Shown piece by piece: positions 2,251 to 50,282 of a stretch of DNA of 64,000 bases. The position numbers and the translations under genes are program-made. Each line of letters opens with the position of its first letter. The first letter of the stretch is position 1. Where the stretch lies: positions 46,754-110,753 of the forward strand of contig CAWFOW010000011.1 in the NCBI GenBank assembly GCA_963817535.1. Direction: 5' to 3'. A model generated the notes under the pieces. The model saw only the letters and a program-made list of their open reading frames with translations. It searched no databases and had not been told where the DNA came from. The stretch is from an uncultured Alphaproteobacteria bacterium (GTDB lineage Bacteria > Pseudomonadota > Alphaproteobacteria > MPNO01 > DASWLB01).

Positions 2251-3890
2251 CGGAGCGGTCGGCCCACCTCAACTCGTTCGCGCGCGACAATCTGCCGCCG
2301 CGCGACCAGTGGCCCGACTTGATCTTTACCCTTTCCGAGCTGACCTACCCCGAGCGGATGAATGCGGCGACGGCGTTCCTCGATGCGCGCATCGCGGCCG
2401 GCGACGGCGACAGGATCTGCCTCATCTCTCCCGCCGAGCGCTGGACCTACGCCGAACTCGCCGACCGGGTGAACCGCATCGCCAATGTGCTGACCCGCGA
2501 GCTGGGCATGGTCCCGGGAAACCGCGTGCTGTTGCGCGCCGCCAACGAACCGATGCTGGTGGCGGCCTACTTTGCGGTGCTGAAGGCGGGCGGCATCGTG
2601 GTGCCGACCATGCCGCTGTTGCGCGCGAAGGAGCTGTCCTACCCCATCGGCAAGGCGGAGATCCGCTTAGCCCTGTGCGACGTGCGGCTGTTGGACGAGC
2701 TCGCGAAGGCCGCGCCGGACGGGCGCACGCGTATCGTTACCTGGGGCGACGGCCGGGATGGCGGCCTGGAATCCCTGATGGCCAAGCCCGGCTACGACAC
2801 GTTCGCCGCCTGCGACACGGCGGCCGACGACGTGTGCCTGATCGCCTTCACCTCGGGTACCACCGGGGTGCCCAAGGGCACCATGCATTTCCACCGCGAC
2901 CTGCTGGCGATCTGCGACACCTATGCGCGGCACGTGCTGCGCGCGTCGCCATCCGACCGTTTCATCGGCTCACCACCGCTCGCCTTTACGTACGGGCTCG
3001 GCGGTCTGGTGCTGTTCCCGATGCGTATCGGGGCGAGTTCGGTGCTGTTGGAGAAGGCGCCGCCCGAGACGCTGATGGAGGCGATCGAGACCTGGGGCGC
3101 GACCGTCTGCTTCACCGCGCCCACCGCCTACCGTGCGATGCTGGCGTTGGGCGACAAGTTCGACATCTCGTCCCTGCGCAAATGCGTTTCGGCCGGCGAA
3201 ACCTTGCCCAAGGCGACGTTCGAGGCGTGGCGCGAGGCGACCGGAATCGCGATCCAGGACGGCCTCGGCTCGACCGAGATGCTGCACATGTTCATCTGCT
3301 GTCGCGAAGACGAGATGCGCGGCGGCGCCACCGGCAAGGCGATCCCCGGCTTTGAGGCGCGCGTGATCGATGCGGACGGCAAGGAGGTGCCGCCCGGAAC
3401 CGTCGGCCGGCTGGCCGTGCGCGGCCCGACCGGCTGCCGCTATTTGGCCGACGAGCGCCAGCGCGACTATGTGATCGACGGGTGGAACGTGACCGGCGAC
3501 ACCTATTTGATGGAGCCGGACGGGTACTTCGTGTACCAGGCGCGATCCGACGACATGATCGTCTCGGCCGGCTACAATATTGCGGGTCCGGAGGTGGAAG
3601 CCGCGCTCCTCGAGCACCCGGCGGTCGCCGAGTGCGGCGTGGTGGGCGCGCCCGACCCGGATCGCGGCCAGATCGTGAAGGCCTATGTCGTGCTGCGTGA
3701 GGGACATGTGAGCGACGCTGCACTGGTGCGCGCGCTGCAGGATCACGTCAAGGCGAATATCGCCCCCTACAAGTATCCGCGCGCCATCGATTTCGTGCCT
3801 CGCCTGCCGCGCACGGAAAGCGGTAAGTTGCAGCGGTTCGAGCTGCGCCGTCGGGCGGCGCAGCCGCCGGACGCAACTCAGGCTTGGTAG
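2247..3890 (+). CDS. AMP-dependent aryl/acyl-CoA ligase (benzoate-CoA ligase-like)
   Basis: 547 aa. AMP-binding motifs TSGTTGVPKG, YGSTE-like, GDTY...; the adenylate-forming Lys is near the C-terminus (SGKLQR). Confidence 0.85.
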   Translation: MTERSAHLNSFARDNLPPRDQWPDLIFTLSELTYPERMNAATAFLDARIAAGDGDRICLISPAERWTYAELADRVNRIANVLTRELGMVPGNRVLLRAANEPMLVAAYFAVLKAGGIVVPTMPLLRAKELSYPIGKAEIRLALCDVRLLDELAKAAPDGRTRIVTWGDGRDGGLESLMAKPGYDTFAACDTAADDVCLIAFTSGTTGVPKGTMHFHRDLLAICDTYARHVLRASPSDRFIGSPPLAFTYGLGGLVLFPMRIGASSVLLEKAPPETLMEAIETWGATVCFTAPTAYRAMLALGDKFDISSLRKCVSAGETLPKATFEAWREATGIAIQDGLGSTEMLHMFICCREDEMRGGATGKAIPGFEARVIDADGKEVPPGTVGRLAVRGPTGCRYLADERQRDYVIDGWNVTGDTYLMEPDGYFVYQARSDDMIVSAGYNIAGPEVEAALLEHPAVAECGVVGAPDPDRGQIVKAYVVLREGHVSDAALVRALQDHVKANIAPYKYPRAIDFVPRLPRTESGKLQRFELRRRAAQPPDATQAW

Positions 3891-5198: not shown

Positions 5199-6185
5199 AT
5201 GAAGCGAACGATTGTCGGCGCGCTCGGCGCGCTTGCGGTGGCCCTGGTCGCCGCCGGCCCGGCCCTCGCAAAGGAAAGGATCAGCTATGCCTACCTGATC
5301 GATCCCGCCCTGGAGGGCATCTTGTACGGCATCAAGTCAGGCAAGGTGCATTCCGACACGGTCGAACTGGTGGCCACACCGCTGCCGATACCCGCGCTGA
5401 TCCAGTCGACAACGACCAAGCAGTACGACGTGATCATGAACGCCGTGCTGTCGATTCCGCGCGCCCTGGAGAAGGGGCTGAGGATGGAAGTGCTGTCGAC
5501 GGCCCTGCGCTCGGTGCCGAGCGCGGTGAGCGGCGCGGCCTGGGTCAAGAAGGACGGGCCCTACAAGACGCTGGCGGACCTGAAAGGCAAGACGATCGGT
5601 GACACATCGCTGCAATCGACCGGCACCATGTGGACGCGCATTGCCATGTGGAAGAAGCACGGCATTAACGTGATGTACGATAATGGCGACTTCAAATGGG
5701 TGCAGCTTCCGGCCTCGGGCCTTCTTGGCGCGGTGCAGACCGGGCGCATCGACGCAGCGAATCTGATCCACCTTCAGGCGTATGAGGCGCTGAAGTCGGG
5801 CAACTACGTCTCGCTCCTGCACACCGCTCAGGACCTCCACGAAATGTTCGGCGTGCGGCAGGTCTCGGCGGTCAATGTCGGTTATCCCGAGAAGCTCAAC
5901 GCGCGGCCCGATGCGTTCAAGGAGTTCGACCGCATGATCAAGGCCACGGTCGATTATGCCAGTGCCCACACGGCCGAAGTCGGCGAGGCGATTGCGAAGG
6001 AGTTCAAGATCTCGCCCGAGTTCTTCGGCTGGTGGCTTAAGAACTATTCGACGTTTCCCGGTGTGGTAAGCGATGGCGATCTGAAGGCCATGGAAGTGGT
6101 TTGGCAGAACGCGCACGATCTGCACGCGATGGGGACGTTCCCGAAGGCCGAGTCGGTCGTCTGGAAGTACGCGATCCGCGAGTAG
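5199..6185 (+). CDS. ABC transporter substrate-binding protein, NMT1/THI5-like (NitT/TauT family)
   Basis: Signal peptide MKRTIVGALGALAVALVAAGPALA and an SsuA/NMT1-like fold. RBS ggagg upstream. Confidence 0.8.
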   Translation: MKRTIVGALGALAVALVAAGPALAKERISYAYLIDPALEGILYGIKSGKVHSDTVELVATPLPIPALIQSTTTKQYDVIMNAVLSIPRALEKGLRMEVLSTALRSVPSAVSGAAWVKKDGPYKTLADLKGKTIGDTSLQSTGTMWTRIAMWKKHGINVMYDNGDFKWVQLPASGLLGAVQTGRIDAANLIHLQAYEALKSGNYVSLLHTAQDLHEMFGVRQVSAVNVGYPEKLNARPDAFKEFDRMIKATVDYASAHTAEVGEAIAKEFKISPEFFGWWLKNYSTFPGVVSDGDLKAMEVVWQNAHDLHAMGTFPKAESVVWKYAIRE

Positions 6186-24730: not shown

Positions 24731-25594
24731 GTGGCCTCGTTGCGGCGCCTGGAAGAGGCACCACCGCATATGCTGCGCACCGCAAAAGGCGTCGAGGAAT
24801 CGGGCACTGCGCCGGCGGCGGTCGGCGCTACGGGCGCCGTTCTGCGGCGTGCGCCGCCCGGGTCGACAGCGCGACAAGCCCTCAAGATTCTCGAACTCTT
24901 TTCGCCCGAGGAGCCAGTGCTCGGCGTTTCGGAAATCAGCCGGCGCCTTGGTGTGCACAAGAGCAACGTGTCGCGGCTGGTGGCGGCGTTGATGGGCGAA
25001 GGCTTCCTGGCCCGCACCGAAAACGGCCGCTACCGCCTCAGCCTCCGGCTCTACGTGATGGGGGCGAGCATCACGCACAGTCACGCGCTGTATCAGGCCG
25101 CGCTTGCGGAGCTGAGCGACGTACGCATCATCACGGGCGAGAGTACCCATCTCGCGGTCCTGGTGGATGCGGAGGTCGTCCACCTCGAGCGCCTCCGCTC
25201 CGACTACCTCATGAAAAGTCACATACGTTCGGGCAGCCATGTGCCCGCGCACGCGACGAGCACCGGGAAGGCGTTGCTTGCCTACGCGCCCAGCGAAACA
25301 TTCGATACGGTGGTCGCGCGCGGACTGCGCCGTTTTACCACGCGTACGCTGACGGACCCGGAGGCATTGCGCACCGAACTGAGCGGCGTCCGGCTGCGCG
25401 GCTATGCACTGGACCGGGGCGAGTTCCTGAAGGGGATCACCTCGCTCGCCGTCCCCATCGTCGCGCGCGACCGCCAGACCGTTGCCGCGATGGCGGTGGT
25501 GGCGCCGTCCGATCGCATGACCGGGCTTCACATGCGCGATACGCTGCGCGTCCTGCAAGGCGTAGCCGCTCGGATCGCCCGACAGAACGCTTAA
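24731..25594 (+). CDS. IclR family transcriptional regulator
   Basis: HTH ...LGVSEISRRLGVHKSNVSRLVAALMGEGFL... plus a C-terminal IclR effector domain. Confidence 0.85.
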   Translation: MASLRRLEEAPPHMLRTAKGVEESGTAPAAVGATGAVLRRAPPGSTARQALKILELFSPEEPVLGVSEISRRLGVHKSNVSRLVAALMGEGFLARTENGRYRLSLRLYVMGASITHSHALYQAALAELSDVRIITGESTHLAVLVDAEVVHLERLRSDYLMKSHIRSGSHVPAHATSTGKALLAYAPSETFDTVVARGLRRFTTRTLTDPEALRTELSGVRLRGYALDRGEFLKGITSLAVPIVARDRQTVAAMAVVAPSDRMTGLHMRDTLRVLQGVAARIARQNA

Positions 25595-40970: not shown

Positions 40971-41681
40971 TTACGATTCGCCCGAGAAGAATCCTTCGGC
41001 TGCGTCAAGGATCGCCTGGCCGGAATTGTGCACGTGCTGGCGCATCGCGCGGTCGGCGCCCTTCGCGTCACCTTTCAGGATGGCCTTGACCACGCGGCCA
41101 TGCTCGAGGCGCGAGCGGCGCACGGCGGAAGGAGCGCGCTGGATCCGGTGAAACTGCAGCTCGAAGACCGAGAGGTTGGCCTGTTCCAGATAGCCCGGCA
41201 GCTCGTTGTGGCGCGCTGCCTCGACCACGAGAGCGTGGAACATTTCGTTGTATTCGGCGTAGCTCCAGTTCGGGATGCCGCGGTCCCAACGTCGCTCGAT
41301 GTCGATGAGTCGCTTGCGCTGCGCGGCATCGATCCATTCGGCGGCGCGTGCCGCCGCGAATCCCTCCAGCAAGGCGCGGATCTGGTTGGTCTCCGCGAAT
41401 TCGCGGCGCGAGATCTTGCGGATGCTCGCGCCGCGATAGAGCTCGATCTGGACGATGCCGTCGGCTTCCAGCCGACGCAGCGCCTCGCGCACGGAGCCCC
41501 GGCTGACCTGGAACTCACGCATGATGTCGGGCTCGACGAGTCGCTGGCCAAGCACGTAGCGGCCGTGTCGGATGCCGCGCTTGATCGAGTTGATGACGTG
41601 GTCGACGGCGGATACGGCGCCGACGGGGCCCGCCGGTATCGGTTCTTCGGTCTTCACGTTCGCCGTGGCACCCGTCGTCAT
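40971..41681 (-). CDS. GntR family (FCD-type) transcriptional regulator
   Basis: HTH ...RLVEPDIMREFQVSRGSVREALRRLEADGIV... plus a C-terminal FCD domain. Confidence 0.85.
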   Translation of the reverse strand: MTTGATANVKTEEPIPAGPVGAVSAVDHVINSIKRGIRHGRYVLGQRLVEPDIMREFQVSRGSVREALRRLEADGIVQIELYRGASIRKISRREFAETNQIRALLEGFAAARAAEWIDAAQRKRLIDIERRWDRGIPNWSYAEYNEMFHALVVEAARHNELPGYLEQANLSVFELQFHRIQRAPSAVRRSRLEHGRVVKAILKGDAKGADRAMRQHVHNSGQAILDAAEGFFSGES

Positions 41682-41904
41682 TGCCGTTCCTGCCCGCGCT
41701 GCTGCGCGCCTGTTAACGCCACCGGACCGGTGCCGGCGACCTTAGTGATGCCTGATGTCGGCTCACCTGACAAGCGGGTCGACAGGCGTTCAACGATTTC
41801 GTACAACGATATTAGGTCTGGCATCCCCGGCGCGAGGGGGCCTGCGCCCGGCTTCGAGTGGGTTCGACCGGATGCGCGTACCGTGATCTCGGGAGGCGGA
41901 AGAT

Positions 41905-42423
41905 ATGTCTGAGGAACGGACGAAGAGGCTGGCGGCGACCAATTTCTGGGACGAGTTGTTCAAGCTCCGCGACCAGCAGCGCGAACGGCGCTCCTCGGGC
42001 CTGCAGGTGATCAAGGGCTCGCAGCTGCCGCAAGAGATCAACCGCCAGGGTTTGATGCGCTGGTACATGCACCCGTCCATCACGGACACGATCCTCTCTA
42101 CCCACATCTTCTTCGAGCAGGAGGTACCACCGGGCAGCCGCTCGGGCCGGCTCAAGTTCCAGGGCGAACAGGTGATCTACATCCTCGAGGGCAAGGGCTA
42201 CACGCTGGTCGACGGCGTCAAGCATCGTTGGAAAGCCGGTGACGTGCTCAACCTTCCGATACGCAAGGAAGGCATCATCATCCAGCATGTGAACGAGGAT
42301 CCGGATGCGCCGGCGAAGTTCGTTGCAGCGGAGCCGAACCTGTACGCATGCACCGGCGTAGATCGCGGCTCCGGTTTCGAGCAGCTTGAGGATGCGCCCG
42401 AATACCGTCGCTCGGACCGCTAG
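41905..42423 (+). CDS. Small cupin-domain protein (paralog of 34301-34834)
   Basis: GEQVIYILEGKGYTLVDGVKHRWKAGDVLNLP...QHVN. Confidence 0.6.
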   Translation: MSEERTKRLAATNFWDELFKLRDQQRERRSSGLQVIKGSQLPQEINRQGLMRWYMHPSITDTILSTHIFFEQEVPPGSRSGRLKFQGEQVIYILEGKGYTLVDGVKHRWKAGDVLNLPIRKEGIIIQHVNEDPDAPAKFVAAEPNLYACTGVDRGSGFEQLEDAPEYRRSDR

Positions 42424-42561
42424 GCAGGCCGATGGCGGGCCTGTATCCCATCGAAATGGCACCTTAAAGCAGAGCCCAATGCGCTGCCGACGAGGCTTTG
42501 GATGAGTCACACGAACGCCGTTCACGATGGCGACCCGAGAAAGACCAAAGGAGGAAACAAG

Positions 42562-43563
42562 ATGACACGACTTTTCCTGCTCGCCGTGCTTGCCGTAGTT
42601 GCGGCCGGTCCGGCATCGGCCGCCGAGCCGATGACGCTCAAGATGAACTGGACGGTGATGCCGGCCAACATGTCGGCGTTGATGCCGTTGGTGCCCAAGG
42701 AGATCTACCGCCATTGGGGCAAGAGCTACGTGCTTGAGCCCGAGCGCATGCGCGGCTCGGGACCGGCGCTGACGGCGCTCGCGGCCGGGACGATCCAGCT
42801 ATCGACGTCCAGCCCGCAGTCGTTGGTGAACGCCGTCCAGCAGGCCAAGATCGACATCGTCGCGCTCGGCCAGGAGCTGACGACCGACCTGCCGGGCTAT
42901 GCCAGCGCCGGGACGTTCTGGGTGCGCAAGGACTCGGGGATCAACAGGATCGAGGACCTCAAGGGCAAGGTCGTTGCCGTCAACGCCTATGGCAGCCAGA
43001 TCTACGGCGTGATGCGCGCCAAGCTCAAGCAGCACGGACTCGAGGCCAGGAAGGACTACCAGGTCGTCGAGCTTCGGCTGCCAACACATCTTTCGGCGCT
43101 CCAGTCGAAGCGCGTGGATATGGCTTTCCTTCTGCTGCCGTTCAACTACAACGCCGAGCGGGATCCTTCGGTCAAGCTGCTGTTCAAGATGGGCGACGTC
43201 GCCGGTCCGCAGGAAACCGTGCTGTTCACCGCCAAACGCGATTGGCTGAGCAAGAATCATGCGGTGGTGGTCGACTTCCTTGAGGACATGTTGCGCTTCC
43301 GGCACTGGCTCTACGACCCCAAGACACGCATGCAGGCGATCGAGACCATGTCCAAGTTCACGAAGATTCCCGTAAAGTCATATGCGAGCTGGGCCTTCAC
43401 GAACCGAGACAATTACCGCGACCCGAACGGGCTGATCGACGTCGCTCGGCTTCAGAAGAACGTCGACTTCCTGAAGGCCTCGGAGGTCGTGCCCGAGACG
43501 ATCGATGCGAAAGCCCATGTGGATCTGTCGTATGTCAAGGAGGCCGCCGCACGGCTCAAGTAG
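42562..43563 (+). CDS. NMT1/SsuA-like periplasmic substrate-binding protein (orphan)
   Basis: Signal peptide MTRLFLLAVLAVVAAGPASA. RBS aaaggagga. Confidence 0.75.
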   Translation: MTRLFLLAVLAVVAAGPASAAEPMTLKMNWTVMPANMSALMPLVPKEIYRHWGKSYVLEPERMRGSGPALTALAAGTIQLSTSSPQSLVNAVQQAKIDIVALGQELTTDLPGYASAGTFWVRKDSGINRIEDLKGKVVAVNAYGSQIYGVMRAKLKQHGLEARKDYQVVELRLPTHLSALQSKRVDMAFLLLPFNYNAERDPSVKLLFKMGDVAGPQETVLFTAKRDWLSKNHAVVVDFLEDMLRFRHWLYDPKTRMQAIETMSKFTKIPVKSYASWAFTNRDNYRDPNGLIDVARLQKNVDFLKASEVVPETIDAKAHVDLSYVKEAAARLK

Positions 43564-43689: not shown

Positions 43690-44622
43690 GTGCCGATCGT
43701 CTTGGGCCTTGCGTCTTCGCACACGCCGTCGATGTTCGTCGCGGCCGATAAATGGCCGATGGTTCACCAGGGTCTTGTGCGCGACGTTCCCCAGCCGGCA
43801 CAAATCGCGCGCGAGACGCCCGACGTCATCGCGGAGCAAGTAGAGCGCGTGAGGCAGGGTTTCGCGGCGCTTCGGGCCGAGCTCGAGGCCGCAAAGCCCG
43901 ACGCGCTTATCATCCTGGGCGACGACCAGAACGAGCTGTTCTCGAACGCGTTGATCCCGAGCTTCGCCATCTTCATCGGCGAGGCGGCCGAAGGGACCTA
44001 CAGCATCACCTTCGTCGGCGAAAAGCCACAGGACAACTGGATGAATCTACCCTGCCATCCCGACCTGGCGCGGGTGGCGCTCGAAGGCCTCATCGAGCGC
44101 GGTTTCGACCTTGCCTATTCCGAAAAGCTGGTCCCGCTCGCCCGACCGGAAATCGGGATCGGTCATGCGTTCACCCGGATCAGCCGCGCGATGCGTTTGG
44201 CGGACTCGGGCATCCCGATCATCCCGATCTTCACCAATGCCTATCACCCGCCGCTGCCGAGCGCCGCGCGATGCTATGCGCTGGGCCAGGCGCTGCGCGA
44301 TATCTTCGCGAAACGCCCGGAACGCATTGCCATCTATGGTTCCGGTGGGCTGTCGCACGATCCGCGCGGGCCGCGCGCCGGGTGGGTGGACGAGCCGCTG
44401 GACCGGTGGGTGCTGGACCGGATCGCGCGCGGAGAAGGCGCGCAGCTTCGCAACCTCTTCACGACGGACTCCGCGACGTTGCGTGGTGGGACCGGCGAAA
44501 TCCGTAACTGGGTGGCGGTGGCAGGTGCCTATGACGGGCGCAAGGGGACGGTCGTGGACTACATCCCGTCCCACCATGCCGTGACCGGCCTCGGCTTCGC
44601 CTATTGGAACGAAGCCGCCTGA
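43690..44622 (+). CDS. Class III extradiol ring-cleavage dioxygenase (LigB family)
   Basis: 310 aa. LigB-type motifs (LASSHTPSMF..., GSGGLSHDP). Confidence 0.8.
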   Translation: MPIVLGLASSHTPSMFVAADKWPMVHQGLVRDVPQPAQIARETPDVIAEQVERVRQGFAALRAELEAAKPDALIILGDDQNELFSNALIPSFAIFIGEAAEGTYSITFVGEKPQDNWMNLPCHPDLARVALEGLIERGFDLAYSEKLVPLARPEIGIGHAFTRISRAMRLADSGIPIIPIFTNAYHPPLPSAARCYALGQALRDIFAKRPERIAIYGSGGLSHDPRGPRAGWVDEPLDRWVLDRIARGEGAQLRNLFTTDSATLRGGTGEIRNWVAVAGAYDGRKGTVVDYIPSHHAVTGLGFAYWNEAA

Positions 44623-44626
44623 ACGA

Positions 44627-45721
44627 TCACGCAGGCTGCAGCGGGCGATAATGGCGCCCCTTGGTGACCGGGGCGAGGCTGCCGGCGATCATCGTCCAGT
44701 TCTCCGCCCCGTCCTCGCTCGCCATGACGATGCCGTCCGTCGTTCCGGCGAAAAGAACGAACCCGCCGGGATATGTGGCAAGACTCATCGCCTCGATGTT
44801 GGCGCGCCGGCTTTCGGGAAAGCCCCGGCTCGCATCGGTCCAGGTCAGGCCCCGGTCGAGGCTTCGCGCGACCGTCCCGTCGGCGAAGCGGGACGTTTGC
44901 CAAGTGCCAGGGTCCTTCCCGGCACCGGCCATGAACATCGTATCGTGATCGAGCGGCGAGACGAAAAAGTGGTCCGGATACCCGATGCGAAAGTCGTTGT
45001 CGATGATCAGTGTCCAGCTTTCGCCCGCGTCGTAGCTGCGATAGAGCCCCATGCCGGTCGTCATGTAGAGTTCGGCCGAGCTCGACGGGTGGACGACGAT
45101 CAGGTGAATGTCACGATACGTCCAATCGCTCGGCTTCGAATAGTCGTCCAGAACGCGCCAGCTCGCGCCGCCGTCGGTCGTCTTCAAAAGGTCGCCCTGT
45201 TCGACTCCCGCATAGATCACGTTCGGATCGTGCGGATCGACAGTCATCGTCTTCACGTGCGCCTCGTGCGGCGGGCTCGGAAACGACCACTTCTCGCGCC
45301 CCCTGGTCTCCTTTACGCCCGGTAGCTCGATCCATGCCCGGCCGTAATCGTTGCTGCGGAACATCGAGGCCGGTTCGGTGCCGGCATAGAGCACGACGGC
45401 ATCGCCGTGATGTGCGTAGCCGAGCGAAAACACGTGCCCGATCGTAATGCCGTTCGAGCGGGGCTCCCACGTCTCGCCGCCATCCGCGCTGAAGAACAGG
45501 CCACCGGAATGCATGCCGGCGAAGATGCCGCCACGGCGGGGCTCGATCATGATCGAGCTGCAATGGTGCCCCTCCAGCCTCAGGCCTTGCTCGGCCCAGG
45601 GGGCATTCGGCGTTTCGCGCTCGAGGACGCTGATGCCGCGCAGCGTCGCGACGAGAAGGCGCGTCGGCGGAGAATCGCCGGTCATCTGATTCTGGCCATT
45701 CGGCGACAGGCACGCAATCAT
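44627..45721 (-). CDS. BNR/Asp-box repeat beta-propeller protein (paralog of 37176-38339)
   Basis: SADGGETW, SNDYGRAW, TTDGGASW, SYDAGESW, SLDRGLTW. About 55% identical to its paralog by eye. Confidence 0.6.
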   Translation of the reverse strand: MIACLSPNGQNQMTGDSPPTRLLVATLRGISVLERETPNAPWAEQGLRLEGHHCSSIMIEPRRGGIFAGMHSGGLFFSADGGETWEPRSNGITIGHVFSLGYAHHGDAVVLYAGTEPASMFRSNDYGRAWIELPGVKETRGREKWSFPSPPHEAHVKTMTVDPHDPNVIYAGVEQGDLLKTTDGGASWRVLDDYSKPSDWTYRDIHLIVVHPSSSAELYMTTGMGLYRSYDAGESWTLIIDNDFRIGYPDHFFVSPLDHDTMFMAGAGKDPGTWQTSRFADGTVARSLDRGLTWTDASRGFPESRRANIEAMSLATYPGGFVLFAGTTDGIVMASEDGAENWTMIAGSLAPVTKGRHYRPLQPA

Positions 45722-45757
45722 GTCAACCTCGCCTCTGCCCTAGGGGCTGTCCAATAA

Positions 45758-45774
45758 GTTACATACTGCACAAT
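45758..45774. promoter_or_regulatory. Operator-like motif GTTACATACTGCACAAT upstream of the BNR gene
   Basis: Shares the GTTA.A.ACTGCA.AA core with the palindrome at 46857-46879. Confidence 0.4.
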
Positions 45775-45795
45775 ATATATCGTCGTATCGCAGGC

Positions 45796-46773
45796 CTACA
45801 GCCGCAGCAGTCGTTCGGCATTGCCATGGGCGATCTTCTCGCGGTCCGCGGCGCTGAGGTCGATCTTGTTCCAGAACTCCATCGCCGTGCTGTTGGCCTC
45901 GTAGGGCCAGTCGATCGCCCAGAGCATGCGGTCCGCACCGATGGCGAGCAGGGTGCAGACGAAAGCCGGCTCGAACCAGTTGCCGCTCGCCGCCACATAA
46001 AGATTGTCGTGGATGTATTCGAGCGGCGTTTTCGCAAGCCCGCGCTGCCTTGCCACGAGATGCGTGTGTTCGTGCAGGCGATGCATCGCGAAGGGCAGCC
46101 CTTCGCCCAGATGTCCCATGATGATCTGAAGCTTCGGATAGGCGTCGAACACGCCCGCGAACAGCATGCGCAGGAAATGGATGCTAGTATCGACCGCGAA
46201 GCCCCAGCCCGGCCGCGCGAGCACGTCCTCGTAACCCTGGAAATAGGCCTTCATCGCATCGGGATGCGGTAGTGCCGGGTGCAGGAAGATCGGAACGTCG
46301 AGCGTCTCCGCCCGCTCGAATATGGGCCAGTACGCCTTGTCGTCGAGGAAGCTTCCGTTGGTATGGCCGTGGACCATTGCGCCAACGAAGCCGTGATCCT
46401 TGACGCAGCGTTCGAGCTCATCGGCCGAGGCTTCCGGCACCACGGTCGGCAGGGCGGCAAACCCGGCGAACCGCTTGGGGTGCTCGGCTTTTGCGACGGC
46501 AAGCCGTTCGTTAACCGCCTTCGCCATGGCGTTCGCCTCGCCCGGCGTGAAGCGCGACACCATCGGCATGTTGAACGACAGCACTTGGACGTCGATGCCC
46601 GCGGCGTCCATGTGCTTCAGACGGGACGGGCCGAGCTCGTCGAGCTCGAAGCCGATATCGTGCCCGATCGCGGCGCTGCGGGATGTCATGTAGAAGCTGC
46701 GGGCCTCGTTGACCTGCGCCTTCTCCCGGAAGGAGGGGAGGGAGAAATGCTCCTCGATGGCGATGATTCGCAT
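45796..46773 (-). CDS. Amidohydrolase_2 family metal-dependent hydrolase/decarboxylase (ACMSD/LigW/LigJ-like)
   Basis: MRIIAIEEHF start block, HPALPHPDAMKAY, IDWPYE... motifs of the amidohydrolase-2 family. Confidence 0.75.
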   Translation of the reverse strand: MRIIAIEEHFSLPSFREKAQVNEARSFYMTSRSAAIGHDIGFELDELGPSRLKHMDAAGIDVQVLSFNMPMVSRFTPGEANAMAKAVNERLAVAKAEHPKRFAGFAALPTVVPEASADELERCVKDHGFVGAMVHGHTNGSFLDDKAYWPIFERAETLDVPIFLHPALPHPDAMKAYFQGYEDVLARPGWGFAVDTSIHFLRMLFAGVFDAYPKLQIIMGHLGEGLPFAMHRLHEHTHLVARQRGLAKTPLEYIHDNLYVAASGNWFEPAFVCTLLAIGADRMLWAIDWPYEANSTAMEFWNKIDLSAADREKIAHGNAERLLRL

Positions 46774-46856
46774 GCATTTATCCTGTGCGCCGGCCATGGT
46801 CTATGGCCTTTCGATAGCCCGACGGTAGCATCGCGGCCGCTGGACGGGAAGGTCAA

Positions 46857-46879
46857 AATGTTATACACTGCATAACATT
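46857..46879. promoter_or_regulatory. Palindrome AATGTTATAcactgcATAACATT abutting the Rieske alpha start codon, in the divergent amidohydrolase/Rieske promoter
   Basis: 7-8 bp inverted arms ATGTTATA/TATAACAT with the ACTGCA core. AT-rich. Confidence 0.45.
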
Positions 46880-48184
46880 ATGAAGGCGTCCGACCTCATC
46901 GACCTCGAAGCCGGAACCCTCAATCGGGAAATCTTCTCGAGCGAGGAGATATTCCAGCGCGAGCTCGAGCGCGTGCTCGCCCCGGCCTGGAGTTATGTCG
47001 GCCATACCAGCCAGATCCCGGACAAGGGCGACTTTTTCCTGTCGCGCTGCGGGACGGAGGCCGTCATCGTCGCGCGTGGCCGGGACGGCACGGTCCGCGT
47101 GATGCTGAACAGCTGCCGTCATCGCGGCATGCCGGTCTGCCGCTACGATGCTGGCAACACGTCAAGCTTCGTCTGCAGCTATCACGGGTGGTCCTACGCG
47201 ATTGACGGCGCGCTCGACGGCGTGCCGCGCAAGGAACGCTACCAGGGCCGGCTCGAGTGCGAGAAATGGGGATTGGTCCAGGCCCGCGTGAGCGTGTTCC
47301 ACGGCTCCATCTGGGCGACGTTCGACGAGGCCCTGCCGACGTTCGAGGACTATCTCGGCCCGGACATGCAGTTCTATCTGCGATCCCTGCTGCAGGGGCC
47401 GGATGGCGATGACGACGGCTACGAGGTGATCGGTGGGATCGTCAAATGGCAGATCCCGTGCAACTGGAAGTTCGGCGCGGAGAACTTCGCCGGTGACCAC
47501 TACCACGGCTACAGCCATATCTCGGTCGAGCGCCTGTCGGTGGGGCTGAGCGGCAAGAAATCGCGGCACAATTTCGCCGCCGTAAAGACGCCACGCCAGG
47601 CGATGAGCGTCGCGGCGCCCGATCGCGGCCACACGATCCGGGCCAGCGTCTACCAGGCACTTGCCGGATACGACCCGCAAATGGGCGCGCCCGACGAGGT
47701 GAACGAGTATTACCAGAAGTGCCACGAGGAACGGCAGAGACGCCTGGGAGACAAGTCGCGCCTGCTGATCCACGGCGGCGTGATCTTTCCCAACACGCAT
47801 TTCAACAGCGCCGGGCGAACGACCATCGGCGTCTGGCTGCCGCTTTCCGCCTCCCGGACGGAGGTGTGGCGCTGGCTGTTCGTGCCGCGGAACGCGCCCG
47901 CGACCGTGAAGGACACGCTGCGCGAATATTATCTGCGCTATGCGGGGCCCGCAGGTCTGGTCGAGCAGGACGACATGGAAAACTGGTCGGCAGCGCAGCG
48001 CGGCACCCAGAGCCTCGTCGCGCGCCGATACCCGTTCAATTACCAGCTTGCGATGGGGCTGACGCGACGGGCGACGCCGGACGAATGGCTTGGCGACGAG
48101 GTGACGATCACCGAGGGCGTTGCCGAGCATAACCAGCGTGCGTTCTACGGCCACTGGGCGAATCTCATGGCAGGCGAGCCTTGA
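46880..48184 (+). CDS. Rieske aromatic ring-hydroxylating dioxygenase, alpha subunit
   Basis: Rieske CRHRGMPVCRYDAGNTSSFVCSYHGW. Catalytic-domain His/Asp motifs. Confidence 0.85.
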   Translation: MKASDLIDLEAGTLNREIFSSEEIFQRELERVLAPAWSYVGHTSQIPDKGDFFLSRCGTEAVIVARGRDGTVRVMLNSCRHRGMPVCRYDAGNTSSFVCSYHGWSYAIDGALDGVPRKERYQGRLECEKWGLVQARVSVFHGSIWATFDEALPTFEDYLGPDMQFYLRSLLQGPDGDDDGYEVIGGIVKWQIPCNWKFGAENFAGDHYHGYSHISVERLSVGLSGKKSRHNFAAVKTPRQAMSVAAPDRGHTIRASVYQALAGYDPQMGAPDEVNEYYQKCHEERQRRLGDKSRLLIHGGVIFPNTHFNSAGRTTIGVWLPLSASRTEVWRWLFVPRNAPATVKDTLREYYLRYAGPAGLVEQDDMENWSAAQRGTQSLVARRYPFNYQLAMGLTRRATPDEWLGDEVTITEGVAEHNQRAFYGHWANLMAGEP

Positions 48185-48717
48185 CGCCCACAGACCGCAC
48201 CCAGGCGCTAGAAGCGTTGCTGCTGCAGTCGGACGTCGAGCGCTTCTTCAGCGCCGAAGCCGAGATGCTCGACGAGCGGCGCTTCGACGACTGGCTCGAA
48301 CTGCTGCACGAGGACCTGCACTACTGGATGCCGATCGCGCGCAACGTGCGGTTCGACGCGCCCGAACTCGAATATACGCGCGAGCATCGCGATGCGAACT
48401 GGTTCGATGAGGGTAAGGACACGCTGCGCAAACGGGTGCAGCAAATTCAGGGCGGCGATCATTGGGCGGAGGAGCCGCGGTCGCGCACGACGCATCTCGT
48501 GGCAAACGTGCGGGTCGCGGCGACCAACGGTGCGGATATTACCGTCAAGTGCCGCTTCATCGTCTACACCAACCGCCTCGAGCACGAGTTCGAATTCTTC
48601 GTCGGCAAGCGCGTCGACGTGCTGCGCCGCGACGGTGGGACGTTGATGCTTCTGCGCCGCGCGATCTATCTCGACCAGAGCGTGCTCCTGTCGCGAAACC
48701 TGACCACCTTCTTCTAG
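48181..48717 (+). CDS. Ring-hydroxylating dioxygenase beta subunit
   Basis: NTF2-like beta-subunit pattern (EAEMLDERRFDDWLELL...). TTG start overlaps the alpha stop. Confidence 0.8.
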   Translation: MTPTDRTQALEALLLQSDVERFFSAEAEMLDERRFDDWLELLHEDLHYWMPIARNVRFDAPELEYTREHRDANWFDEGKDTLRKRVQQIQGGDHWAEEPRSRTTHLVANVRVAATNGADITVKCRFIVYTNRLEHEFEFFVGKRVDVLRRDGGTLMLLRRAIYLDQSVLLSRNLTTFF

Positions 48718-48720
48718 GAG

Positions 48721-49182
48721 GTGGCGATTTCAACGCGGCGCGTAAAAGATACCTCGGGTGGGCTCACGGACAGTCTGGACTTTCTGATCCGGGACACGCG
48801 ACTTCTGCTCACGAGGCAGATCGAGGTCCGGGTGGAAAAGCAGGGCATTCCGCTGCGAAGCTGGTTTCCGCTCCGCGTTCTATACAAGCGTGAAGGGATC
48901 ACCCAGCGCGAGCTCGGCTTGCTGCTGGGATATGGCGACGCGCATGCGGGGGTGATTGTGCGTTCCATGGAGCGCCGGCGGTTGATCGAACGGCGCCCGA
49001 GCCAGACGGACAAGCGCCGGATCGATCTCTATCTGACGCCGGAAGGAAAGAAGATGGCGCGCCAGACCCTGCGCCACATGCGGGCCATCAATGCTCGGAT
49101 CGTGGCGGGCTTCAGCGCCGCCGACGAACGGGCCTTCCGGTCGCTCCTGTCGCGAGCGCACGAAAATCTCGAAGAGACATGA
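48721..49182 (+). CDS. MarR family transcriptional regulator
   Basis: wHTH ...GITQRELGLLLGYGDAHAGVIVRSMERRRLIERRPSQTDKRRIDLYLTPEGKK. GTG start, RBS ctaggagg. Confidence 0.75.
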   Translation: MAISTRRVKDTSGGLTDSLDFLIRDTRLLLTRQIEVRVEKQGIPLRSWFPLRVLYKREGITQRELGLLLGYGDAHAGVIVRSMERRRLIERRPSQTDKRRIDLYLTPEGKKMARQTLRHMRAINARIVAGFSAADERAFRSLLSRAHENLEET

Positions 49183-49268: not shown

Positions 49269-50282
49269 ATGATTCGCCGAAATCTCGCCGTCGCCGCCGC
49301 CGTTGCCGGTCTTGTCGCTGGTGCGATGGCGCCCGCACGCGCGGACGAGCCGACCGTGCTCAAGTTCGCCTATCCGGGGCCGCTGGCGAGTTGGCCTGCG
49401 ACGAAGGGCGTCGCGCCGTGGGCGGCCAAGATCAAGGCGGCGTCCGGCGACCTCGTGGAGATCAAGATCTATCCCGGCATCGCGAGCTACCGCAATGTGT
49501 ACGACCGCATCCTCAACGGCGTTGCGGATTTCGGCTTCGGCACGTTCGGACGTATCGAAGGCCAGTTTCCGAAGACCTCCGTCACCGGATTGCCGTTCCT
49601 CGCGGACAACAGCGTCGAAACCGGGCTCGGTGTCTGGCGGCTCTATGCCAAAGGTGTCATTGCCGACGAATATCGCCGCGTGAAGCCCATCGCGATGTTC
49701 GGGTTCGGCAATTCCGAGCTCTTCCTGACCAGCGCCATCAAGTCGCTGGACGACCTTAAGGGCTTGAAGGTCTTCGCGAATGGCCGGTCCGTCGCACGAA
49801 TCGTCACGCTTGTCGGTGCCGTTCCGATCACGTCCAATCCCGCCGAGCTGTTCCAGGGGTTGAACCGCGGCATTGCGCATGGCGCAGTGTTTACCTGGTC
49901 GGGTGTCCAGCAGTTCAAGCTCGTCGAGCTGATCAAGTTCGACATCAACATCCCTTTCGGCCGGACGGGCGGATACTTTTTCATGAACAAGGAGGCGTTC
50001 GCGCGCCTCCCCGCGAAGGCGCAGCAGGCGATCGACAAGTATAGCGGTGACGACCTATCCCGGTTCATGGGCCAGGAAGCCGACAACCAGGACGAAGCGG
50101 ACCGGGCGCACGTCATGGCGGCCAATCCGAACCAGAAGGGCATGAAGCTTTCGGCTGCGGAGCTGGACAAGCTGCGCCACGTCCTGGCACCGGTGACCGA
50201 CGAGTGGGTCAAGGCCACGCCCGATGGGGCCAAGGTCCTTGCCGCCTATCGCGCCGAGGTCGAGGAGATGCGCAAGCACTGA
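49269..50282 (+). CDS. TRAP-transporter DctP-family solute-binding protein (orphan; paralog of 18811-19815)
   Basis: Signal peptide MIRRNLAVAAAVAGLVAGAMAPARA and DctP fold. Confidence 0.8.
   Translation: MIRRNLAVAAAVAGLVAGAMAPARADEPTVLKFAYPGPLASWPATKGVAPWAAKIKAASGDLVEIKIYPGIASYRNVYDRILNGVADFGFGTFGRIEGQFPKTSVTGLPFLADNSVETGLGVWRLYAKGVIADEYRRVKPIAMFGFGNSELFLTSAIKSLDDLKGLKVFANGRSVARIVTLVGAVPITSNPAELFQGLNRGIAHGAVFTWSGVQQFKLVELIKFDINIPFGRTGGYFFMNKEAFARLPAKAQQAIDKYSGDDLSRFMGQEADNQDEADRAHVMAANPNQKGMKLSAAELDKLRHVLAPVTDEWVKATPDGAKVLAAYRAEVEEMRKH

Follow-up and report, generated by a model that had tools for sequence, protein, structure and literature searches.

We analysed a 64,000-nucleotide stretch of DNA from an uncultured Alphaproteobacteria bacterium (assembly GCA_963817535.1, contig CAWFOW010000011.1, positions 46,754 to 110,753 of the forward strand; hereafter the window, whose numbering is used throughout), with attention to two similar AT-rich sites on either side of an amidohydrolase gene, the dioxygenase operon that one of them precedes and the regulator that might bind both. 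The operon begins with the alpha subunit gene of a Rieske ring-hydroxylating dioxygenase (46880..48184, plus strand; Pfam Rieske and Ring_hydroxyl_A, HcaE/BphA-like), followed by the beta subunit gene (48181..48717, plus; Pfam Ring_hydroxyl_B), whose start overlaps the alpha stop by 4 bp, and by a gene for a MarR-family regulator (48721..49182, plus; Pfam MarR_2/MarR) placed 3 nt past the beta stop. Given this tight packing, we treat the three genes as one operon. The ATG at 46880 is the sole possible start of alpha, since the N-terminus (M-x-x-S/A-D-L/F-I-D) is kept from the equivalent ATG in the 16 orthologous loci described below and an in-frame stop lies at 46826; no Shine-Dalgarno sequence precedes it. 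Divergent from the operon is the Amidohydrolase_2 gene (45796-46773, minus), which encodes a gamma-resorcylate-decarboxylase-like non-oxidative decarboxylase, close to gamma-resorcylate and 2,3-dihydroxybenzoate decarboxylases (PDB 3s4t, E = 3e-65). Its true start is the ATG at 46773 (MRIIAIEEHF, with AGGA 8 nt upstream) and not 46797, because the alignment of orthologues begins at the first residue of the 325-aa form, which the gene caller also returns; the divergent region therefore measures 106 bp. On the far side of the amidohydrolase gene, a BNR/Asp-box repeat protein (44627-45721, minus; Pfam) is encoded downstream of the other site, with its own Shine-Dalgarno sequence (GAGG, 5 nt before the ATG).

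The site in the divergent region, site 2 (46857..46879, assigned to neither strand), reads AATGTTATACACTGCATAACATT and abuts the alpha ATG. It is a dyad of the form AATGTTAT-ACACTGC-ATAACATT, with perfect 8-bp arms (AATGTTAT, 46857-64; ATAACATT, 46872-79), the 7-bp spacer ACACTGC and a 21-bp core at 46858-46878. The inner CA/TG (46866-67 and 46869-70) is symmetric too, which brings the symmetric positions to 10 of the 11 in the dyad; A46865 and C46871 are unpaired. A preliminary description of this DNA had recognized the palindrome, although the arms it gave, ATGTTATA/TATAACAT, are one base off at this unpaired position. Site 1 (45756..45776, likewise without strand) reads AAGTTACATACTGCACAATAT and is a degenerate second copy upstream of BNR; the segment first pointed out, GTTACATACTGCACAAT, spans 45758-45774, within the 74-bp gap between the amidohydrolase stop (45796-45798) and the BNR ATG (45721, minus), and the site lies 34-54 bp from that ATG. 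Both sequences are found exactly where they had been reported, and the sequence likewise agrees that the divergent region between the amidohydrolase and Rieske genes contains site 2, which extends to the Rieske ATG. The AT-rich islands described around them are also real, with a 60-bp GC content of 0.47 at site 1 and 0.45 at site 2 against a window mean of 0.66; the two sites are among about a dozen stretches of the window with a 40-bp GC content of 40% or less (16 overlapping intervals).

The two sites had been put forward as copies of a shared operator-like motif. The degenerate pattern used for this matches at only these two places in the window; having been derived from the sites themselves, it is circular and not an independent test. 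The likeness itself holds up: 16 of the 21 core positions are identical between the sites, no other 21-mer of the window, whichever the strand, exceeds 13/21, and the probability of at least 16/21 is 0.018 in 1.5 kb of random sequence at 35% GC. A position weight matrix (PWM) was built from seven orthologous sites, all from other genomes. Its highest score in the 64-kb window falls on site 2, at 38.8 bits, followed by site 1 as the best non-self match, at 17.4 bits; the next match reaches 7.8 bits. The score of site 1 was reached by 5e-5 of shuffles of its intergenic region and by 4.5e-4 of shuffles of the AT-rich core.

To place site 2 in a comparative setting, orthologous loci were gathered by a genome scan with the alpha protein, a metagenome scan with the MarR protein and look-ups of MarR homologues. 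Sixteen distinct loci were obtained, mostly from Stellaceae and other alphaproteobacterial metagenome-assembled genomes (MAGs), with Rieske alpha proteins 77-89% identical. The same cassette stands before alpha in 16/16, composed of T-N-GAC-N, 15 bp (16 in locus L007), an invariant TATACA and the dyad, so that a palindrome of 21-23 bp lies directly upstream of the alpha-beta-MarR operon. The consensus of the dyad over the 16 loci is RYGTTATACASTGCRTAACAT, and its 21-bp core holds 10 invariant and 5 near-invariant columns. Conservation in the alignment is limited to T-N-GAC and the dyad, while the spacer and the remaining intergenic DNA vary. The alpha ATG is found 11-12 nt past TATACA, without a Shine-Dalgarno sequence, in 15 of the loci; in the remaining one, L006, the gap is 35 nt. 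The motif thus recurs outside the window and is conserved at orthologous loci, the two points whose failure the preliminary description had named as grounds for giving up its proposal. Every 20-kb locus holds a single high-scoring site of this kind, with L007 and its relatives and the present window as the two exceptions. The central base of the dyad alternates between C and G across loci, and the left arm has its mirror image in the right, (T/G)GC(A/G)TAACAT. At half-site position 6 the left half always has A, as part of TATACA, whereas the right half and an additional L007 copy (site b, below) have G, which suggests that the left half is a compromise between operator and -10 box.

Outside this group the dyad is lost from view. 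A search for inverted repeats upstream of the distant Rieske homologues L008-L011 returned only GC-rich, unrelated palindromes, two of the four loci having a distant divergent MarR gene, and the putative operator is untraceable beyond the clade with alpha identity of at least 77%. L009 carries a related AT-rich element that shares flanks with the sites described here but has a 1-bp indel and falls below the PWM threshold. In this locus (5924-6000), which belongs to a Vulcanimicrobiota MAG with alpha at 61% identity and in which no MarR was found, BNR and Rieske alpha are directly divergent across a 77-bp spacer; the element reads AATAATGCTATATTACCATAATATTATT, has the flank CCAATAA in common with site 1 and may be a diverged operator of another regulator. 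Two Dehalococcoidia loci with Rieske homologues 47% identical (L026 and L051, 5921-5941) hold GYTATGCACTGCGGCACAT in the 5' untranslated region, downstream of a TTGACA-N17-TAGACT promoter. The sequence in these loci that is half-similar to the dyad, GYTATGCACTGCGGCAC, occurs there without a MarR homologue and was set aside as probably unrelated.

The conserved positions upstream of and within the dyad allow a promoter to be predicted for the Rieske operon. Its -35-like hexamer would be TGGACG (46841..46846, plus), which contains the T-N-GAC invariant in 16/16 loci, kept in L007 even inside the upstream coding region. The predicted -10-like element (46862..46869, plus) lies in the left dyad half and would be either TATACA at 46862-67, with a 15-bp spacer, or TACACT at 46864-69, with a 17-bp spacer. 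The promoter assignment at site 2 comes from conservation and not from a consensus match; a scan of 45650-46950 for sigma-70 and terminator consensus sequences found no promoter and one chance-level terminator within the amidohydrolase gene. With the promoter so placed, the dyad would lie over the -10 element and the predicted transcription start. A sigma-54 assignment of TGGAC was also considered and rejected, as the alignment of loci holds no conserved GC element at the required spacing. Because the ATG follows the -10-like hexamer by only 11-12 nt and lacks a Shine-Dalgarno sequence, a leaderless or nearly leaderless alpha mRNA is predicted for this catabolic operon. The minus-strand hexamer TTGACC (46851..46856), 1 bp from the 21-bp core, is a possible -35 element of the amidohydrolase promoter, and L007 site b has a similar layout, with TTGACA 2 bp from the dyad. 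No credible -10 element was found for the minus-strand TTGACC or for a BNR promoter around site 1.

As to the protein that might read the dyad, the product of the third gene of the operon carries a MarR winged helix-turn-helix domain (PF12802, 3e-9; PF01047, 1e-6, both above cut-offs), and all its PDB matches are MarR-family proteins. A MarR orthologue (61-75% identity) directly follows beta in 15/15 loci that reach past beta, the sixteenth, L002, ending short, so that dyad and regulator gene are both present in every informative locus. Across 12 orthologues with an overall identity of only 64-71%, neither the recognition helix (GDAHAGVIV) nor the wing (DKRRIxLYLT) varies, matching the invariance of the dyad. 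When 79 Rieske-homologue loci were scanned, a site of at least 19 bits was present only in the seven closest (alpha at least 77%), six with the MarR orthologue plus the truncated L002. The 72 more distant loci had no site of at least 19 bits and no MarR orthologue in the available sequence, two of them having a distant homologue of 28-31%. The nearest outgroups, L008 and L009 (alpha 61-62%), had neither a MarR orthologue in the available sequence nor a canonical dyad, L008 ending within beta. The cluster is common in soil metagenomes, with 223 MarR relatives found at E <= 1e-10.

Taken together, these observations make it probable that site 2 is the primary operator of a MarR repressor encoded third in the operon that it controls (alpha, beta, MarR). 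According to this proposal, a MarR homodimer would bind the 21-bp dyad ATGTTAT-N7-ATAACAT, which is fused to the core promoter: TATACA, the -10-like hexamer, falls in the left half, and the right half extends over the predicted start (about 46873-46880) as far as the ATG. With the dimer in place, RNA polymerase would be shut out and alpha-beta-marR repressed, a negative autoregulation that would be lifted by an aromatic-acid effector akin to the substrate of the pathway. The fixed distance from operator to ATG would follow from the very short or absent leader. Since the dyad adjoins the minus-strand TTGACC, bound MarR might also influence the divergent amidohydrolase promoter. Site 1 would be a weaker, auxiliary operator for the same protein, a degenerate copy gained in this lineage that could give BNR a MarR-controlled promoter of its own.

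Several observations weigh against this proposal. The MarR gene is never found apart from alpha and beta, and its linkage therefore cannot separate a motif that follows MarR from one that follows the Rieske promoter; the co-occurrence of motif and MarR is moreover confounded, as the loci are related. The predicted promoter is weak, its hexamers matching 8-9 of 12 consensus positions, with a 15-bp spacer when TATACA is taken. In the commonest layout (L001, L004, L005, L086, L099, L101 and L102) the divergent operon, encoding a solute-binding protein (SBP), BNR, LigB and the amidohydrolase, is preceded by a TTGACA-N17-TAGCGT-like promoter of its own, some 45 bp away from the dyad, and lacks a second site; joint control of both operons is therefore not general. 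Of the 14 columns that at least 15 of the 16 orthologous sites have in common, site 1 breaks 4 (T7C, C9T, T16C and C19T) and keeps 10, and it is a poor palindrome, with 3 of 8 arm positions symmetric. Lastly, L002, L093 and L097 share the amidohydrolase-to-BNR order with a spacer of 21-40 bp and have no motif there.

The points on site 1 give most room to another explanation, namely that site 1 alone is a non-functional relic, or arose by chance from an AT-rich insertion or the scar of a rearrangement, and that only site 2 works, for which the chances fall just short of even. The short motif-free spacers imply that site 1 lies in an AT-rich, lineage-specific insertion of about 50 bp. In addition, its flank ATTGGACAGCC, read in the BNR orientation, resembles the TTGACAGCC block that adjoins the dyad elsewhere, as would be expected of a displaced fragment of an ancestral divergent promoter, and site 1 may accordingly be a displaced copy of the ancestral BNR-proximal promoter/operator. 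Set against a relic are the rank of site 1 as the best non-self match to a PWM made from other genomes, at a score that composition-matched shuffles rarely reach, its sensible distance from the BNR ATG, the related AT-rich element of L009 at the same distance from BNR and the existence of loci with several sites. Whether site 1 is a working lower-affinity operator or a relic is thus about evenly balanced. Two further observations concern these sequences. The GGCTGTCAA block (TTGACAGCC on the minus strand, with TAGCGT 17 bp on in L004) recurs about 55 bp upstream of the dyad in L001, L003-L005 and L086, where it looks like a promoter of the divergent SBP-BNR-LigB-amidohydrolase operon, and a near-copy, TTGGACAGCC, flanks site 1 (45746-45755). 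In the long-read metagenome contigs L093 (5013-7051) and L097 (5076-8079), LigB, BNR and the amidohydrolase are split into frame-shifted tblastn pieces, which probably reflect assembly indel errors and not pseudogenes.

The multi-site locus is L007 (recovered a second time as L094, with L095 and L096 near-identical), which carries three dyad copies, each in a different promoter region (LigB/SDR, BNR/Mo-hydroxylase and immediately ahead of alpha). The extra copies, at 446-466 and 3423-3443 (2591-2611 and 5568-5588 in L094/L095), fall in the LigB/SDR-DLH and BNR/Mo-hydroxylase divergent regions. In site b, ATGTTATGCTGTACATAACAT, found in the interval from BNR to a molybdenum hydroxylase gene and 108 bp away from the closest start codon, the ATGTTAT/ATAACAT arms are perfect and TATACA is absent; site c, ACGCTTCACACTGCATAAGGT, is placed between LigB and the SDR gene, away from any ATG. 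The arrangement of these copies indicates that putative multi-site control does occur. The L007 locus also contains meta-cleavage lower-pathway genes (DmpF/DmpG-like) and a UbiD decarboxylase. For the window, the preliminary description had proposed that a common regulator controls the LigB/BNR/amidohydrolase and Rieske units. Site 1 is not conserved in position, being absent from L002, L093 and L097, and co-control of BNR through it is no more than plausible. The supposed LigB/BNR/amidohydrolase unit does not exist here: the LigB-type class III extradiol dioxygenase gene (43690-44622; Pfam) runs on the plus strand toward BNR, so that the two are convergent, and no match to the operator PWM precedes it.

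Returning to site 2, it could be argued that the sequence is conserved merely as a compact cassette for promoter and translation initiation, its dyad symmetry being incidental and no repressor being involved. This would fit the invariance and fixed spacing of TATACA and T-N-GAC and the near-constant position of the ATG, and selection on a leaderless 5' end could preserve the bases from the -10 element to the ATG. It is nonetheless unlikely, because the mirrored right arm and the C/G flip at the centre are what a dimer site would be expected to show, the dyad of L006 is present though 24 nt farther from the ATG, and L007 site b keeps both arms without TATACA or an ATG, which implies that the dyad itself, and not merely the -10 box, is the conserved unit; L007 site c and site 1 also stand away from an ATG.

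Slightly less probable again is that the dyad is the operator of a regulator other than the MarR protein, either the GntR/FCD regulator (40971-41681, minus), the IclR regulator (24731-25594) or an unlinked factor. The first two had been named as candidates together with MarR, and of the three only MarR, as third gene of the operon in 15/15 loci, is upheld: homologues of GntR or IclR occur in 0 of the 15 dyad loci, with flanks of up to 10 kb. The left half of site 2 contains GT-N3-AC (GTTATAC), loosely like GntR-type half-sites when judged against the Rigali consensus, but site 1 (GTTACAT) does not retain it and the complete pattern, T-N-GT-N3-AC-N-A, is absent, so that the site does not have the form of a GntR/FadR(FCD)-type operator. 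The GntR protein best matches phosphonate-utilisation-type regulators and its gene adjoins that of an SsuA/PhnD-like binding protein, while the IclR gene is 22 kb from the cluster. An unlinked trans-acting factor would be compatible with the comparative data. Least probable by far is that the palindrome works as an RNA hairpin that hides the surroundings of the start codon in a longer transcript, by way of translational control or attenuation, since the 8-bp A-U stem ending beside the AUG, though foldable, folds no better than shuffles (z = -1.34), shows no covariation (0.163 against 0.168 when shuffled) or compensatory changes, has left-arm T-to-C and G-to-A changes left uncompensated in L001, L003, L082, L086, L097 and L098, which together with the C/G centre flip point to a DNA site read by a symmetric dimer, and could not form at all in the predicted transcript, which begins inside the right arm.

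The proposed MarR-operator pair has parallels among known systems. DesR and FerC of Sphingobium sp. SYK-6 are MarR-type repressors of the catabolism of lignin-derived aromatic acids, and repression by DesR extends to more than one transcription unit (ligM and desB) and is lifted by aromatic-acid substrates (bioRxiv 10.1101/2020.07.27.224295). The likeness consists in MarR-type control of aromatic-acid catabolism in an alphaproteobacterium, and the several targets of DesR match the proposed logic of one MarR and several sites. They differ in that the comparison shows no close sequence relationship to the window MarR, whose putative targets are an HcaE/BphA-like two-subunit Rieske dioxygenase, a decarboxylase, LigB and the BNR protein, and in that the operon in the window ends with the regulator gene and the proposed operator abuts the start codon. 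Saro_0803 of Novosphingobium aromaticivorans is described as a resveratrol-responsive MarR-like repressor of nov1 that leaves the promoter on binding an aromatic ligand (PMC10046596). It represents the best-scoring named family for the window MarR; its target gene and ligand differ from those proposed for the window protein. Membership of the Saro_0803/DesR-like subfamily (NCBIfam NF053777) is ruled out by a score of 44.4 bits against a cut-off of 200 bits, and the window MarR falls in no named subfamily by sequence; HpaR is a weak NCBIfam match. The nearest solved structure is PDB 2fbk/5dd8 (E = 5e-10), deposited as 'MarR family transcriptional regulator', which we take to be HucR of Deinococcus radiodurans; the other PDB matches are also distant. 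HucR, E. coli MarR and HpaR are winged-helix dimers that bind a pseudo-palindrome overlapping their own promoter and are released by ligand. The window protein shares this winged-helix MarR fold at distant homology, whereas its proposed operator, -10-like element and start codon are fused in a single 44-bp cassette without a Shine-Dalgarno sequence, and to our knowledge ATGTTAT-N7-ATAACAT is unrelated to the operators known for these three proteins.

The remaining neighbours of the cluster were assigned by Pfam, NCBIfam and PDB searches, as was the GntR/FCD regulator. They are an SsuA/NMT1-like binding protein (42502-43563, plus) and, beyond MarR, a DctP-type binding protein (49269-50282, plus). 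Between the GntR and SsuA-like genes lies an 820-bp stretch (41682-42501) whose only open reading frame is one of 300 aa on the minus strand (41812-42714), without a Pfam match; no site was found in this stretch with the operator PWM. The BNR protein is a 364-aa Sortilin/Ycf48-like beta-propeller. Many loci of soil Alphaproteobacteria (the window, L001, L003-L005, L007, L086, L099, L101 and L102) have its gene in synteny with those for LigB and the Amidohydro_2 decarboxylase and with the Rieske-MarR operon. A plasmid collection searched with blastn in distant mode gave weak gene-level matches only and no syntenic locus, and a literature search on this gene combination returned nothing specific.

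Most likely, then, the locus has an ordinary autoregulated promoter/operator of MarR type that heads an uncharacterised aromatic-acid cluster, its sole mildly unusual feature being the fusion of promoter, operator and start codon in a 44-bp cassette. A more far-reaching reading, which we regard as possible but tentative, is that the cassette is a single multifunctional element in which promoter, MarR operator and the whole (near-)leaderless 5' end are superimposed, which would explain its unusual conservation, and that its dispersed copies (three in L007, two here) rewire rearranged genes into one MarR regulon. The element would then head a widespread, uncharacterised aromatic-acid pathway of soil Alphaproteobacteria, made up of the HcaE-like dioxygenase, the gamma-resorcylate-decarboxylase-like enzyme, the LigB-type extradiol dioxygenase and the BNR beta-propeller. 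The general understanding of MarR regulation is left unchanged by these results, which propose a concrete operator and a matching regulator for an uncharacterised aromatic-acid cluster common in soil metagenomes. Once the effector is known, the MarR/operator pair could become a part for ligand-responsive biosensors, and the layout without a Shine-Dalgarno sequence, with the dyad abutting the start codon, offers a clean candidate system for work on leaderless expression in the Alphaproteobacteria.

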